Of a stretch of 32,000 bases of DNA, positions 1 to 22,434 are shown piece by piece. Location: positions 30,001-62,000 of the forward strand of contig CAYHAA010000007.1 of NCBI GenBank assembly GCA_964354495.1. The letters run 5' to 3'. This stretch comes from an uncultured archaeon. Lineage in GTDB: Archaea; Asgardarchaeota; Thorarchaeia; Thorarchaeales; Thorarchaeaceae. The translations under genes and the position numbers were made by a program. The notes below the pieces were generated by a model. The model was not told the DNA's origin and did not search any database. It worked only from the letters and a program-made list of their open reading frames with translations. How positions within the stretch are numbered: the stretch's first letter is position 1; each line of letters begins with the position of its first letter.

Positions 1-1232
1 TCATAGAGCTGTGGTTTAGAACCCTCTATCGGACCGTATCGTAACTTTGGGAATACCTTAGAAGATGGGAGCAAAGTTCGAATGTAACGCAATGATGTTT
101 CTTCAACGTATTCATCTCTAGATTTGAGATATTTTTGGAATTGGTTTGGTGATTGCTGTTTGAGAAGATGCTCCGATATGAGTCGTAAATTTCTCAATGC
201 TAAGGATGGATTGAAAACGTAGTATTGTTGATTGTGCTTAATAATCGGACGGAGTGAGATTATTGTATCATTTGTGGGCCATCCTCTCCATTCTGTTTTT
301 GCAGGGCTAAGAAAATCAACATTGTTTCCGAGTTCGCAGCTTAGACATTGCAGAATCTTGTCATCAGTTGTTTTCTGCGGTTCCACTTCAAAAGCATATA
401 ATAATTCCAAGGGGCGTAAATCAGAATGTATGCTTCTTGGTTCGCATTGAACATCTTCCCTTGATTTTAGTAAACCTGTATTGAATTTTCCATGTAATTC
501 TGCTATTGTGTCAAATATATCGCGTTCTTGTTGCATAGTTAAGAGATACTTGCTTTTTACTCTTTGAAAGAACTCATATAGGTCTTGAGCTGAAAAACCA
601 ATTGTGTTTTCTAGGTATTGGCTTTGTTTCCTGAATAGTTCTAGAAATGTTTGATCTAGATGCTGGATATAGGCATCGCCTCTTCTGAACAAATAGGAAA
701 GAATTAGTTTGAATCTCAATTCAGCCTCAACTGGATTCTCTTGATTGGTTACAAATTCAGAGCCGAAATAGTTGGAAACATTCAATTCGAGTTCATTCCA
801 AAGACTGAGAGCTTTTTCTATCTCTGCTCTTTTTGGCTCTTTCCAAGTAGATGAGTAAGGCTTCGAAGTAGCTATACTCATTAAATATTCTATGAGCGAC
901 TCGTCTGTTGAATCAGATGATATTCCCGAGGCTCTAATTTGAACTAATTTTTGAATTTCTGCAATAATCGATAATGGGTTGTATTCTACGACAAGACTTT
1001 CGAATTTGCTTATTATGATATCTACCGCTCTCTTGAAATCCGGTTTTCTATTGCGTAGATTTTCAATGAATAGCTTATGTTGTCTGGAATCCCATCTAGA
1101 TGTAATTGAAATATACTTACCTTCCCTATGGATCGTAAAGGGGCCATGCTCGAAGGTTTCAGAATCATCTATCTTAGATGCTTCTTCTCTAGTGGATTTC
1201 TTTCCTCTATGTATGTACTTCTTCTTCTTCAA
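1..1232 (-). CDS. Large AT-rich hypothetical protein (>410 aa, runs off left edge), possibly with a downstream PD-(D/E)XK/NERD-like nuclease domain
   Basis: Hand translation from TTG at 1232 (GGGAG just upstream; in-frame TAG at 1238-1236) is open to base 1: MKKKKYIHRGKK...WRGWPTNDTIISLRPIIKHNQQYYVF...YLKSRDEYVEE...LLPSSKVFPKLRYG...PQLY(E/D). Not in the ORF track because there is no stop in the window. Sampled 60-mers are 32-40% GC. The nuclease assignment is recalled family resemblance only. Confidence 0.8.
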   Translation of the reverse strand, partial: MKKKKYIHRGKKSTREEASKIDDSETFEHGPFTIHREGKYISITSRWDSRQHKLFIENLRNRKPDFKRAVDIIISKFESLVVEYNPLSIIAEIQKLVQIRASGISSDSTDESLIEYLMSIATSKPYSSTWKEPKRAEIEKALSLWNELELNVSNYFGSEFVTNQENPVEAELRFKLILSYLFRRGDAYIQHLDQTFLELFRKQSQYLENTIGFSAQDLYEFFQRVKSKYLLTMQQERDIFDTIAELHGKFNTGLLKSREDVQCEPRSIHSDLRPLELLYAFEVEPQKTTDDKILQCLSCELGNNVDFLSPAKTEWRGWPTNDTIISLRPIIKHNQQYYVFNPSLALRNLRLISEHLLKQQSPNQFQKYLKSRDEYVEETSLRYIRTLLPSSKVFPKLRYGPIEGSKPQLY

Positions 1233-1252
1233 AACCTATTCTCCCATTTCGT

Positions 1253-1570
1253 GCAGAAGAATCAAACACATAGTTCTACTAAGTCATCGTCACATCGCAA
1301 TAAGAATCCCTTCCTACCCTACACCTCAGGTCGACACGTCAACAGTGTATTCTTGGAATTGCTCAACCAGTGTTGGGCCGTTTCAGCCTGTCCGAACGAG
1401 TCCTCAACAGATTCAAGTCCGTATCATTGTCACATCCCGTTCGGGGGTGTCGTTTCTGTTCCCAGAGCGAGGCTCTCGCCTCCCTGCTTTCACAGGACTG
1501 TTGTCGGTATGAGTCAGGAGTTTCCTCAGCTCTCATCCCGGGGGATAAGTACCGTCAGTTGCACTTCTGC
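1253..1570 (-). ncRNA. rnpB: RNase P RNA, archaeal type A-like; 3' end non-canonical
   Basis: Minus strand shows CR-I GAGGAAACUCC (1527-1517), a P3 hairpin CUUAUCC/GGAUGAG, GNRA hairpins CCUGU-GAAA-GCAGG and GAGGC-GAGA-GCCUC, CR-II AACAGAAAC, P12 CCGAACG/CGUUCGG, CR-III UGAAAC, P5 CUCA/UGAG, P6 CGAC/GUCG, P15 UUCC/GGAA with a GGUA loop, and a candidate P1 GCAGAAG(1570-1564)/CUUCUGC(1259-1253). Ends are approximate. Confidence 0.85.
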
Positions 1571-1602
1571 TCCAGAGCTACATCTCTCTTTATGATTCAA
1601 CT

Positions 1603-1610
1603 CATAAAAA
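1603..1610 (-). promoter_or_regulatory. Candidate TATA box for rnpB
   Basis: TTTTTATG on the minus strand about 25-33 nt upstream of the predicted RNA 5' end. Confidence 0.35.
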
Positions 1611-1631
1611 GATGGCTAAATCACATAATAC

Positions 1632-2642
1632 TCACTCGTCCGCAGAGTGTTTCTTCCACATCTGAGGATATCTCCCTCTGACCATCAAGACACGCTCGCT
1701 GGTAGCCACTATCCCGCTCTTGGCCTTCGCGATCCTCTCACTGTTATCATTGCTCGTTGCCAGCGCAACGGCTTCCCCCTTCAAGGTCTTGATGAGTAAA
1801 AGGTCTCCATTCTTGATGCCTGTGTTCAAACTGAGAACTCCTGTTGCAGCAAGGTCCGCACCGTGGCATATTGCATCAACGGCGGAGTCTCGTATCTGTA
1901 TGAATGGCAAATGGCCTAAGGCGAACTCCGTAGGCAGCAGATATCTGCGAAGGAGTTTCTCGTCACCATTCTCCTTCCAGAAGATGTAGGCGTCTTTCAG
2001 GTCGTACAGAGAACATAGATGCTCGTCCTCCATGAATTTTCCTACCCTTGTTCTACGGAGTTCTCTCATGTGCCCTCCAACACCGAGTGCTTCGCCAATG
2101 TCAAAGCAGAGCTTTCTGACGTAGGTCCCTGCTTGGCATCCAACACGAAAGAGAACGATTCTTCCGCTAATCTCAAGAATCTCATTGTAGTATATCTCGC
2201 GTACTCGTAATACTCGCTTCACAGATGACCTGAGCGGAGGCTTTTGGTAGATCTTCCCTACAAACTCATTGATCACTCGCCGTATCTCTTCCTCTGGAGT
2301 TGGGTGATGGAGTTCAAGAACACAGACGTACTCCTTCCCAGAAGGGATGAGAGCCTGCATTGCCTTTGTGGCATTGCCGACGCCTGTGGGAAGAATACCG
2401 GTCACACCAGGGTCCAATGTTCCTCCGTGACCGACACGGCCCACTTCGAGAATCTTCTTGACCCATGTTGCTACTTCATGGCTGGTTGGTCCCGCTGGCT
2501 TGTCAAGGACTATGATACCATTCTCAAGCAGGTATTTGATTGGAAGATTATCAAGCGAGGAGAATCCATATTCCGGATTTGTAGTGTCTGATGCCCGTTG
2601 AATCACTTCACGAGGTTGGTCTGACGGCAGCAAGCCCACCAT
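1632..2642 (-). CDS. cbf5: H/ACA RNA-guided pseudouridine synthase Cbf5 (TruB family, PUA domain)
   Basis: Motifs LDKPAGPTSHEV, GHGGTLDPGVTG, GTYVRKLC, ELRRTRVG; C-terminal PUA domain; canonical position after rpl14e. Confidence 0.97.
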   Translation of the reverse strand: MVGLLPSDQPREVIQRASDTTNPEYGFSSLDNLPIKYLLENGIIVLDKPAGPTSHEVATWVKKILEVGRVGHGGTLDPGVTGILPTGVGNATKAMQALIPSGKEYVCVLELHHPTPEEEIRRVINEFVGKIYQKPPLRSSVKRVLRVREIYYNEILEISGRIVLFRVGCQAGTYVRKLCFDIGEALGVGGHMRELRRTRVGKFMEDEHLCSLYDLKDAYIFWKENGDEKLLRRYLLPTEFALGHLPFIQIRDSAVDAICHGADLAATGVLSLNTGIKNGDLLLIKTLKGEAVALATSNDNSERIAKAKSGIVATSERVLMVRGRYPQMWKKHSADE

Positions 2643-17144: not shown

Positions 17145-17429
17145 TTACCAGCTCCTGCTGAGGCGTTTCTTCATTCTGTCTTCTGGTCTTCCACGAAGGA
17201 CATCTCCATTGATTCGAACCACTGTAGTATCCGGGAGTATCACATCGAAGACACAATTGCTCTTGGGCGCATGTACTTCCCTGTCCACTGTGCGGAAGTG
17301 AATCATTTCCTTTGACTCTCCTAGGATAACGCCCTTTCTGCACACAAAGCTCGGATCTGTCGATTCGACAATGTGCATTGATAGACCAGTCAGTTCATGT
17401 CTTGTGACATTCTCTGGAGTGATTCTCAT
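17145..17429 (-). CDS. rnp1: RNase P protein component 1 (Rpp29/Pop4)
   Basis: ITPENVTRHELTGL, GVILGESK, PKSNCVF, GDVLRGRPEDRMKK; canonical position between rpl29 and rps17. Confidence 0.93.
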   Translation of the reverse strand: MRITPENVTRHELTGLSMHIVESTDPSFVCRKGVILGESKEMIHFRTVDREVHAPKSNCVFDVILPDTTVVRINGDVLRGRPEDRMKKRLSRSW

Positions 17430-21124: not shown

Positions 21125-21703
21125 GTGCACAAAGTGGAGAACCCTGACATTCAATTTCTTCTGAATATTAGAACGAAGTTGAACGAAGAGATTGATAGAC
21201 TGCGAGATATGATTGCACGCCTCGAGGAGCACATAGAGAATCTTGATGCTCAAATTGCCAAAGCAAGTTTCACAACAGCTGATGCTGCGCTCGCGAAGTC
21301 GCCAAGTGTCGAAGGCCCAGCTCCGGCCAAGCCGTCAGCAGAAACTACCGAGCCTCAGAGTATAGTCCTGATGGACAAGGCTGGCAAACTAGAGCTTGGA
21401 ATCATTGAGATCTCTGAACAGACTATGCGGTTCCTACCTGCTGAGCATGCAGTCTATGACATCACTCGTGGAGCCTTTGCTCGATTCTTCGTGGAGAGAA
21501 TTCTCGGTAAGTTCCAGCAGGAAGACCGTCATCGAGTTGAGAACGGTGAGATTGAATGGGAAGATGCTTTTGATTTTGAAGTACATTCAGAAGACAACAT
21601 CCTAGGTGAGATGGTCATCAGGAATTGCGGTGATGAGAATCGAATGAAGGAGATACAGTCTACTCTCCGATGGGCTCTTGAGAAGACGTACAGCGCTAGA
21701 TGA
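21125..21703 (+). CDS. Conserved archaeal hypothetical protein with an N-terminal coiled coil
   Basis: Heptad LNEEIDRLRDMIARLEEHIENLDAQI, a Pro/Ala linker, and C-terminal FF..RIL...DRHRVENGEI...IRN.GDENR..EI.STLRWALEK resembling an uncharacterised TACK-type family (recalled, not searched). Confidence 0.75.
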   Translation: MHKVENPDIQFLLNIRTKLNEEIDRLRDMIARLEEHIENLDAQIAKASFTTADAALAKSPSVEGPAPAKPSAETTEPQSIVLMDKAGKLELGIIEISEQTMRFLPAEHAVYDITRGAFARFFVERILGKFQQEDRHRVENGEIEWEDAFDFEVHSEDNILGEMVIRNCGDENRMKEIQSTLRWALEKTYSAR

Positions 21704-21819
21704 ACCAGTGATGGCGCCCTTATGAACTCACCCTCACTTCCCTTGCAAAAGAATATAACTTCCATCTAGTTCCACAGAAACCAGCCGTATCTTGCAGAGC
21801 GTATTCGGGAGCAATACAG

Positions 21820-22434
21820 ATGGAGACTCATCGTGACTCAGAAGAATTGCCTATCAGCCCTCAGATCATTGTAGAGGCTGTGCTTCATGCTCATGAGTTT
21901 TTCAAAGAGAACCGGATTGATGCAAGATATGAAAAGATGGCACTTGACCTTGTCCGGCGATATGTCTCTCAACAGGGCAGGCCACGGGAAGAAGATCCCC
22001 TCTTTGCTGCGGCGCTCTATATTGTGACACGGCATCCCTGGAGTCACCCAAATCCTCTGACGAAAACAGAGTTCGCTAACAAGCTCAATATGAAGGAGTC
22101 CAGCCTAGAATGGTACACAGAGAGTATCTGCGACAAGCTTGGCTTCTCAACAATTCATGATAGCACACAGCTTCCCTTCTTCATGGACCCTCAGGGAACG
22201 ATAGCCAGCGTTGTTGACTCTGTTGTTCGTGGTAATGTAGGTGAAGAGCTTGTAATCGGCATTGTTAGCCGCAATGTACTTTCGCCAGAGTCTCTAGCTG
22301 AGAAGATAGTCGATCAGCTATGCAGTGTTGTGAAAATCATTCCTAGCATTTTCGAGCCAGAGCTGTACGCCCTTGTCCGCAAGAAGATCGAAATCGAGAG
22401 CAAGAGGGTAAGTGAGCAGATCCAGAGAAGATAG
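21820..22434 (+). CDS. Hypothetical protein with a single TFIIB/cyclin-box-like repeat
   Basis: Residues ~38-103 (ALDLVRR...LFAAALYIVTR...P.TKTEFANKLNMKESSLEWY) align by eye to the repeats of the TFB at 27674-28699. Confidence 0.65.
   Translation: METHRDSEELPISPQIIVEAVLHAHEFFKENRIDARYEKMALDLVRRYVSQQGRPREEDPLFAAALYIVTRHPWSHPNPLTKTEFANKLNMKESSLEWYTESICDKLGFSTIHDSTQLPFFMDPQGTIASVVDSVVRGNVGEELVIGIVSRNVLSPESLAEKIVDQLCSVVKIIPSIFEPELYALVRKKIEIESKRVSEQIQRR

Follow-up and report, generated by a model that had tools for sequence, protein, structure and literature searches.

A truncated, probably resident RNase P RNA gene beside a complete copy of another allele type in a Thorarchaeaceae genome, and rnpB as a probable insertion hot spot in the genus

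We describe the fate of rnpB, the gene for the RNA of ribonuclease P (RNase P), in an uncultured archaeon of the Thorarchaeaceae (assembly GCA_964354495.1). The window analyzed is a 32,000-nucleotide (nt) stretch of contig CAYHAA010000007.1, positions 30,001 to 62,000. The rnpB copy in this window, copy A, is probably the truncated remnant of the resident gene; a complete gene just outside the window, copy B, is most likely the source of RNase P RNA; and rnpB would be an insertion hot spot in the genus. Four observations carry this reading: the anatomy of copy A, the existence of a second copy, a break in synteny, and parallels in related genomes. We write C7 for the contig (window position 1 is C7 30,001, and C7 31249-31574 is copy A at window 1249-1574), G000 for this genome, A and B for the rnpB copies, and C and D for further rnpB pieces on C7.

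From these observations we infer which copy is active, that gene conversion took place, and an order of events. The resident rnpB would have been cut after nt 265-278 by foreign DNA, and copy A would thereby have lost conserved region V (CR-V) with its ACAGAA, the 3′ strand of helix P4, and its own P1 3′ strand. RNase P RNA would then be supplied by copy B, a self-contained gene of a different allele lineage inside the inserted DNA, and the first 201 nt of the two copies would have been homogenized. Behind rnpB, cassettes would accumulate that have copies of its 3′ tip as their boundaries, and a TnpB/omega-RNA element would also insert at rnpB nt 258/259.

Copy A matches the archaeal type A RNase P RNA model RF00373 (gathering score 84 bits) at window 1249-1574 on the minus strand, with 110 bits and the whole model covered (cmscan). 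The score comes from the first ~265 nt; only nt 1-265 are RNase P RNA, with patchy homology to nt 278. As an earlier note made from the letters of the window had it, the RNA fits the type A model up to the 3′ strand of P15: the alignment is clean to about model position 243 (window ~1310) and is gapped and mismatched beyond. CR-I with the P4 5′ strand (GAGGAAAnUCC) is present as GAGGAAACUCC, aligned at high posterior probability in copies A and B, and the P4 5′ strand common to both reads AAC(U)CCUGA. Past the break, the model's gugaACAGAAGGgGGcUUA, from the ACAGAA and P4 3′ strand region, is set against UAGAAC--UAUGUGUUUGA / UAGAAC--UAUGUGUU of copy A. The segments of copy A, all on the minus strand, are as follows.

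1575 to 1611, minus strand: native rnpB promoter and leader, with a TATA-like CTTTTTATG at 1603-1611 and the 5′ half of the P1 extension, GTAGCTC, at 1575-1581
1374 to 1574, minus strand: rnpB nt 1-201 (P1 5′ strand, P2, P3, P4 5′ strand/CR-I, specificity domain), 100% identical to copy B
1310 to 1373, minus strand: rnpB nt 202-265 of native allele type (P5/P7 3′ strands, P15-P16 hairpin), from the alignment with relatives
1292 to 1309, minus strand: scrambled junction, with a 6-nt insertion at 1309-1304 and then 1303-1292 matching nt 267-278, where rnpB homology stops (ten genus genes aligned)
1249 to 1291, minus strand: nonhomologous tail, forced by the model onto CR-V and the 3′ strands of P4 and P1 in a gapped, mismatched alignment

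The break is abrupt. Copy A is 98% identical to its closest relative over nt 202-262, and after nt 265 it is ~40% identical to any rnpB. CR-V ACAGAA with a complementary P4 3′ strand, TCAGGGTT or an equivalent, was not found in copy A. Within the window TCAGGGTT occurs only at 21140 and 29615, far from copy A and at chance frequency (2 found, 1.1 expected), in agreement with the earlier observation that this octamer is not to be found downstream of the P4 5′ strand. Having lost CR-V and the 3′ strands of P4 and P1, copy A could not build the catalytic core.

Helix partners in the tail were compared with shuffles of the 85 nt that follow copy A nt 265. The best P4 partner (6/8 including G-U pairs) is equalled in 87% of shuffles, the best P1 partner (9/11) in 30%, and the P2 partner in ~100%. 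Partners had been proposed for P4 (AGTAGAAC/TATGTGTT, 1280-1265), P2 (TTGCG, 1300-1296), and P1 (CTTCTGC, 1259-1253). All three lie where they were placed, but none is statistically distinguishable from chance in these shuffles, and the helices said to survive are no evidence of copy A function. The exception to this chance-level tail is a 10/12 match between window 1303-1292 and rnpB nt 267-278, seen in the alignment with genus genes. No DNA similar to the tail (1249-1291) was found in the 27 other genus genomes, nor does the sequence after nt 265 resemble the 3′ end of rnpB in any of nine more distant relatives. With the P4, P1, and P2 partners at chance level and no relatives of the tail, we reject a surrogate 3′ end supplied by the insert as improbable. 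The suggestion of a novel functional variant is not supported, for want of a P4 3′ strand beyond chance.

A search of the whole genome for a second rnpB, as the note had proposed, returned two RF00373 matches, both on C7, on the same strand and 2.3 kb apart. The second, copy B (C7 28603-28942, minus strand), is a complete gene 2.3 kb downstream of copy A and 1,058 nt beyond the left edge of the window. Its score of 157.5 bits lies inside the range of 136-199 bits of full-length rnpB in 22 related genomes, and copy B is thus an ordinary full member of the family. It carries GAACAGAA followed by UCGGGGUU, and UCGGGGUU pairs 8/8 with the P4 5′ strand, so the ACAGAA and CR-V that copy A lacks are in place here. 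Copy B also has its own TATA-like box, unlike the native one, and its own P1 extension, in which AGGCCT upstream is complementary to AGGCC downstream; a B-type copy in the relative G035 pairs likewise (GGCCT/AGGCC). About 39 nt behind copy B resemble the start of the gene that usually lies downstream of rnpB. Its own TATA box, its own complementary extension, and this flank give copy B the appearance of an entire chromosomal rnpB unit that stems from a related lineage.

Copies A and B are identical at 201/201 positions over nt 1-201, beginning exactly at nt 1 (blastn), with unrelated sequence upstream; beyond nt 201 identity drops to ~75%. The result is a pair of perfect 201-bp direct repeats 2,632 bp apart. 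Copy A nt 202-262 agrees with the closest relative, locus L021, at 61/62 positions and with copy B at 46/62, and in an alignment with ten same-genus genes the A/B differences in the P15-P16 hairpin are compensatory. The shared block is itself a mosaic: nt 1-57 and 111-201 are native-like, and nt 58-~95 (CATACCGACAACAG) resemble the G035 B-type copy. The unit on G035 contig C224 that holds this copy shares with copy B the GGCCT/AGGCC extension, the CATACCGACAACAG segment, and the P16-loop GUCGG. When the P6 pseudoknot, formed between the P5/P7 linker and the P16 loop, is examined by eye in three allele types, the shared CCGAC, which lies in the CATACCGACAACAG segment, pairs 5/5 with the copy B loop GUCGG and 4/5 with the copy A loop GUCGA; copy A thus joins CCGAC to a native P16 loop. 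A mosaic block of 100% identity inside otherwise divergent copies points to homogenization of nt 1-201 by gene conversion.

The same repeats could be explained by a circle of 2.63 kb, made of copy A nt 202-278, the 743-amino-acid (aa) gene that lies between the copies, the copy B promoter, and nt 1-201. Such a circle would have recombined, by way of the rnpB 5′ segment that it carries, with the homologous sequence of a single resident rnpB, and it could leave again, with rnpB intact both ways. It would account for perfect 201-bp direct repeats 2,632 bp apart with compositionally foreign DNA between them, and its excision would leave cbf5, the promoter, nt 1-201, and the 3′ part of copy B, a complete gene. 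However, it assigns the promoter and leader of copy B to the cassette and the 3′ end to the chromosome, yet AGGCCT and AGGCC co-vary, and promoter and 3′ end occur together in the B-type copy of G035, on a contig without the 743-aa cassette. It also turns copy A nt 202-265 into cassette DNA, although this segment is 98% identical to the chromosomal gene of the closest relative, and the gene restored by excision would pair GTAGCTC with AGGCCA at only 3/5 positions. As an origin of the arrangement the circle fits these data badly and is improbable; as an outcome of present-day recombination through the 201-bp repeat it is possible.

Copy A sits at the native position of rnpB. The 42 nt upstream of it differ from the closest relative L021 at only ~4 positions, and the motif CCATCTTTTTAT lies ~30 nt upstream of rnpB, at the same distance in most of ten genus loci; copy A has this native promoter. 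In genus loci L009-L021, P1 extends 5-7 bp beyond the RF00373 model, with covariation (GGCTC/GAGCC, TAGCTC/GAGCTA, GGCCT/AGGCC). Genus rnpB genes also carry an extra, P19-like hairpin between the 3′ strands of P2 and P4. The native 3′ end is found as an orphan piece, tip C (C7 24061-24106), 7.2 kb downstream of copy A: genus-type sequence of nt ~295-340, then GAGCTAC, then native-like flank. Tip C keeps ACAGAA and the P4 3′ strand UUGGGGUU. Its similarity to the tip of copy B covers 31 nt at 90%, and C extends to ~46 nt of genus-type sequence. The GTAGCTC of copy A is complementary to the GAGCTAC after tip C, and this match, together with the native promoter of A, identifies A and C as the two ends of the original gene. 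Between them native nt 279-294 are absent, and with these half of the extra hairpin as well as the last part of the P2 3′ strand (nt 277-282). The CTTCTGC at 1259-1253, a 7-bp perfect complement to the P1 5′ strand, is distinct from the true P1 partner, which lies with its 7-bp extension at C7 24061-24106.

The true 3′ piece therefore exists elsewhere, beyond the left edge, as the note had allowed for. An intron or a simply split gene is not supported, because the 7.2 kb between copy A and the native tip hold a full, promoter-bearing rnpB and protein genes. The idea of a decaying second copy holds in part: two copies exist, but the broken one in the window is the resident, with native promoter and synteny. 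Since the native promoter is kept, the copy A remnant is probably still transcribed; we take its transcript to be an inactive truncated RNA, which may extend, as a leader, into the 743-aa gene that starts 17 nt further.

Could the transcripts of A (nt 1-278) and tip C (nt ~295-340 plus the 7-nt extension) pair in trans as a split ribozyme? The 5′ end of A and the 3′ end of C, extensions included, are complementary over ~19 bp, C retains ACAGAA and UUGGGGUU, and the only rnpB found in the relative G015 is interrupted by a TnpB element, which makes some tolerance of interruption conceivable. Against this stand the intact copy B, which leaves no need for a split enzyme, the failure to find a promoter for C, the absence of nt 279-294, and the weakened P6 of copy A. 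We regard a split ribozyme here as barely credible.

The gene order supports the resident status of copy A and the disruption by inserted DNA that the note had suggested. In the genus loci examined, cbf5 is the conserved upstream neighbor of rnpB. The empty site is seen in ten relatives, where cbf5, rnpB, and the next gene are adjacent and only tens of nt separate the 3′ end of rnpB from that next gene. On C7, the homologue of the downstream gene lies at 21266-21855 (tblastx), with its native flank at ~21858. BLAST gave no significant similarity to rnpB ahead of this flank, and a fourth, decayed tip at that place is rejected. Set against the adjacency in relatives, the position of the homologue leaves ~9.4 kb of extra DNA here. 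The vicinity includes the following features.

C7, read in the rnpB direction: inserted order of a 743-aa open reading frame (ORF), copy B, piece D, a 124-aa TnpB fragment, a 1222-aa ORF, tip C, and a 2.2-kb cassette
1 to 1232, minus strand: N-terminal ~410 codons of the 743-aa ORF (whole ORF C7 29001-31232), which starts 17 nt after the model match
C7 28545-28564, inverted relative to A, B, and C: piece D, a 20-nt rnpB piece
1632 to 2642, minus strand: cbf5, an archaeal dyskerin-like pseudouridine synthase (Pfam TruB_N, TruB_C_2, PUA, DKCLD)
17166 to 17411, minus strand: gene for the RNase P protein subunit Rpp29/Pop4 (PF01868, 68.5 bits)

A gene for Rpp30 is also present, on contig C6. The presence of Rpp29 indicates that RNA-based RNase P is retained.

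The inserted DNA carries debris of a TnpB element. The 124-aa ORF is a C-terminal TnpB fragment (Cas12f1-like_TNB, E 3e-14) of a gene truncated at the C7 locus; full-length paralogues of 712-721 aa have the TNB domain and a weak OrfB_IS605 match. Six aligned TnpB 3′ ends in G000 are common up to ...ACTTACAATGAnCGG and then diverge at once. The right-end motif (...CAACTtACAATGAACGG) has 18 matches in G000, each with a different flank; examples lie at C8 83612, C27 14804, C23 17936, C35 10553, and C42 93. Several right-end copies are alike only over their last ~210 nt (~90%), and some may be stand-alone guide-RNA modules without tnpB. TnpB elements read an RNA guide of ~16 nt at the right end from the flanking DNA (Karvelis et al. 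2021, PMC8612924). On C7, the flank at this position is rnpB nt 259-276 of genus type, identical to loci L017 and L020, with unrelated sequence after it; the rnpB flank measures 18-20 nt (nt 257/259-276) and is inverted. The copy A junction (1292..1309) overlaps the same stretch, nt 259-276. As a left end of the TnpB element, the copy A junction was considered and ruled out: its sequence is not repeated in the genome or the genus. Another TnpB right-end flank in G000, at C3 ~76960-77035, runs into an apparent tRNA 3′ half (T-arm and CCA end, opposite strand), which ARAGORN did not call; the layout parallels the rnpB tip beside the right ends on C7 and in G035.

A bolder reading makes rnpB the homing or self-targeting site of an RNA-guided TnpB, in which a guided cut broke the resident copy and favored its replacement by a mismatched one. 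This reading draws on coincidences of position. The guide-length piece ends at the same place in rnpB (after ...TTCGAT, nt 276) in G000 and G035, joined to different DNA in each. TnpB cleavage is reported 15-21 bp from its target-adjacent motif (TAM; PMC8612924), and both the end of the guide (nt 276) and the end of homology in copy A (nt 278) fall within this range. The local guide has mismatches to every surviving rnpB copy, the two in G000 and the two in G035. We hold guided cutting to be a doubtful though conceivable cause.

The 1222-aa ORF beside this fragment belongs to a multi-copy family, with 14 matches in G000 and up to 26 in G015, and is shortened at its N terminus. Full-length giant proteins of 1,700-1,900 aa are divergently paired with TnpB-like genes of 700-720 aa. 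The TnpB fragment and the 1222-aa ORF on C7 both lack their N-terminal parts, which would fit an internal deletion. The TnpB-like genes of G000 (C1 5801-7966, C3 77072-79210, C6 13605-15287, and C44 1-1877, the last running off the contig end) have divergent partners at C1 1-5612, C3 79400-84802, C6 15537-20639, and C44 2056-5445; these TnpB-like proteins measure 560-721 aa and carry a C-terminal TNB domain. Neither the 1222-aa ORF nor the 1,700-1,900-aa partner proteins match a Pfam or PHROG family; the partners have no PDB match, a PDB sequence search with a 1,659-aa relative of the 1222-aa ORF returned nothing, and the protein atlas gave only sub-threshold AAA/STAND-like leads for the ORF and weak leads of this kind for the partners. 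No shared left end of the TnpB/giant-protein unit appeared in an alignment of the regions beyond the partner gene. Instead of a plain insertion sequence, the pair may form a conserved module of two genes. In a relative's locus, L038 (5193-5810; G015 C20), and only there, an IS607-type serine recombinase (MerR helix-turn-helix plus Resolvase) lies directly behind a 1,659-aa member of the giant family.

The 743-aa ORF is of another kind; it shows no similarity to the 1222-aa ORF, and the two are not paralogues. GC content is 0.35-0.39 right after the break and in the 743-aa region, versus 0.48-0.51 in the flanks, and on this basis we regard the 743-aa gene as low-GC foreign cargo. The ORF matches no Pfam or PHROG family and has a weak PADLOC match, CARF_PDDEXK. 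A further 29 proteins match it at E <= 0.001, the named ones mostly from Thorarchaeota. An invariant E-L-D ... D ... E-x-K block at residues 411-428 is suggestive of a PD-(D/E)xK nuclease. None of its homologues stands beside rnpB in the contexts examined. Two homologues lie ~0.8 kb from a tRNA gene on other Thorarchaeota contigs (L026 9104-9180, tRNA-Lys, and L033 4229-4302); the gene may travel on islands aimed at RNA genes. The 2.2-kb cassette behind tip C holds a 161-aa ORF without any family and a BNR-repeat ORF.

Related genomes show the same locus in other states. Most carry a single gene: 23 of the 26 genomes with an rnpB match have one. Extra copies of the rnpB 3′ tip (the last ~28-58 nt, in direct orientation) bound cassettes in 5 of the 28 genus genomes, namely G000, G015, G034, G035, and G037. 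G015 has three of them on contig C91. In the same assembly, which is 90% complete, contig C50 (24273-24507) holds cbf5 and rnpB up to nt ~262 and then stops, and contig C40 (1-761; the pair L052/L029 with C50) joins the same TnpB right end directly to rnpB nt 259-340 and native flank. The only rnpB found in G015 is thus interrupted in situ at nt 258/259, with no uninterrupted copy detected; an intact allele may coexist with it, or it may be tolerated as a two-piece RNA. The rnpB contig of G016 ends at nt ~267. G035 retains a right-end remnant with a 19-nt guide of GAGA allele type and 26 nt of native-like flank, followed by an inverted rnpB tip. It has two full rnpB of different allele types (contig C26, L064, 2985-6400, and contig C224, L070; 160.7 and 141.2 bits), three further tip copies, and ~1.2 kb of additional DNA that separates cbf5 from the native-type rnpB. 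In G001, RF00373 matches contig C5 8936-9065 weakly and only in part (25 bits, model positions 38-191), away from the full rnpB; this may be another rnpB fragment. The tip repeats, the right end in place in G015, and the fossil in G035 together mark rnpB, as we read these genomes, as a recurrent insertion site in the genus, where cassettes enter at the 3′ tip and the TnpB-type element at nt 258/259.

These parallels also bear on the quality of the assembly. In a metagenome-assembled genome, two strains or species with different rnpB alleles might have been merged; the assembly has 51 contigs and 3.8% estimated contamination, and the shared 201-nt block could mislead an assembler. However, both copies stand on one 138.6-kb contig with 2.3 kb of unique DNA between them and conserved synteny on both outer sides. 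Merging cannot make a truncated junction, an inverted 20-nt rnpB piece, or an orphan tip, and the independent assemblies G035 and G015 show related arrangements. An artefact is very improbable.

Several points weigh against the reading of A as resident remnant and B as replacement. The perfect repeat of 201 nt exceeds common assembly k-mers, and the tandem order could reflect a mixture of integrated and excised forms. The mosaic nature of the shared block leaves the direction of gene conversion ambiguous, and it adds to the inverted orientation of D and the absence of native nt 279-294 in complicating the order of events. The 7-bp complement to P1 at 1259-1253 has a rough chance probability of 2-3% by our estimate, and a degenerate surrogate 3′ end for copy A keeps a small residual likelihood. 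In the scanned ORFs of C7 22000-31300, no integrase or recombinase family was found.

Each part of the locus belongs to a known kind, be it the gene fragment, the tip repeats, the TnpB debris, or the gene conversion. The unusual features are the target and the allele replacement. Like archaeal type A RNAs (RF00373), copy A has P1-P3, CR-I and the P4 5′ strand, the whole specificity domain, and P15-P16; it differs in having no CR-V, P4 3′ strand, or P1 3′ strand of its own, and is a fragment rather than a variant architecture. The reduced type T RNase P RNAs of the Thermoproteaceae keep their catalytic core, whereas copy A is without parts of it. Some mobile elements, for example those reportedly described by Williams in 2002, insert at the 3′ ends of tRNA and tmRNA genes, where direct repeats of the gene's 3′ part are left behind. 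Here, too, direct tip repeats bound cassettes and relatives show the empty site. However, the target is rnpB and no integrase was found in the island; the break in the window is internal (nt 265-278) rather than at the tip, and the island carries a whole replacement rnpB. In the literature searched, rnpB was not reported as a target of integration or of TnpB.

As in IS200/IS605-IS607 TnpB elements (PMC8612924), a C-terminal TnpB fragment is followed by a shared right end and a unique flank at the guide position. The rnpB flank is, however, inverted and truncated, with unrelated DNA attached to it; of the TnpB gene a remnant is left, and its full-length relatives of ~700 aa are paired with a 1,700-1,900-aa protein. 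The 201-nt block of 100% identity within copies otherwise ~25% different is like that of gene-conversion copies in general, but here the decaying copy is the resident and the intact one the incomer, and most relatives have a single copy of this essential ribozyme gene.

The RNase P RNA gene is essential and is normally regarded as untouchable. In this genome, judging from the sequence comparisons, the resident gene of an essential ribozyme was most likely destroyed and functionally replaced by an incoming allele. For annotation, the lesson is that an Rfam match above threshold may represent a dead fragment, with the working gene possibly next to it. The rnpB locus behaves like a landing pad of the tRNA type for cassettes, and with it rnpB joins the RNA genes that serve archaea, in this case probably Thorarchaeota, as sites of insertion. 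It also offers a concrete, testable case of a TnpB-type element with a guide that matches an essential ribozyme gene.

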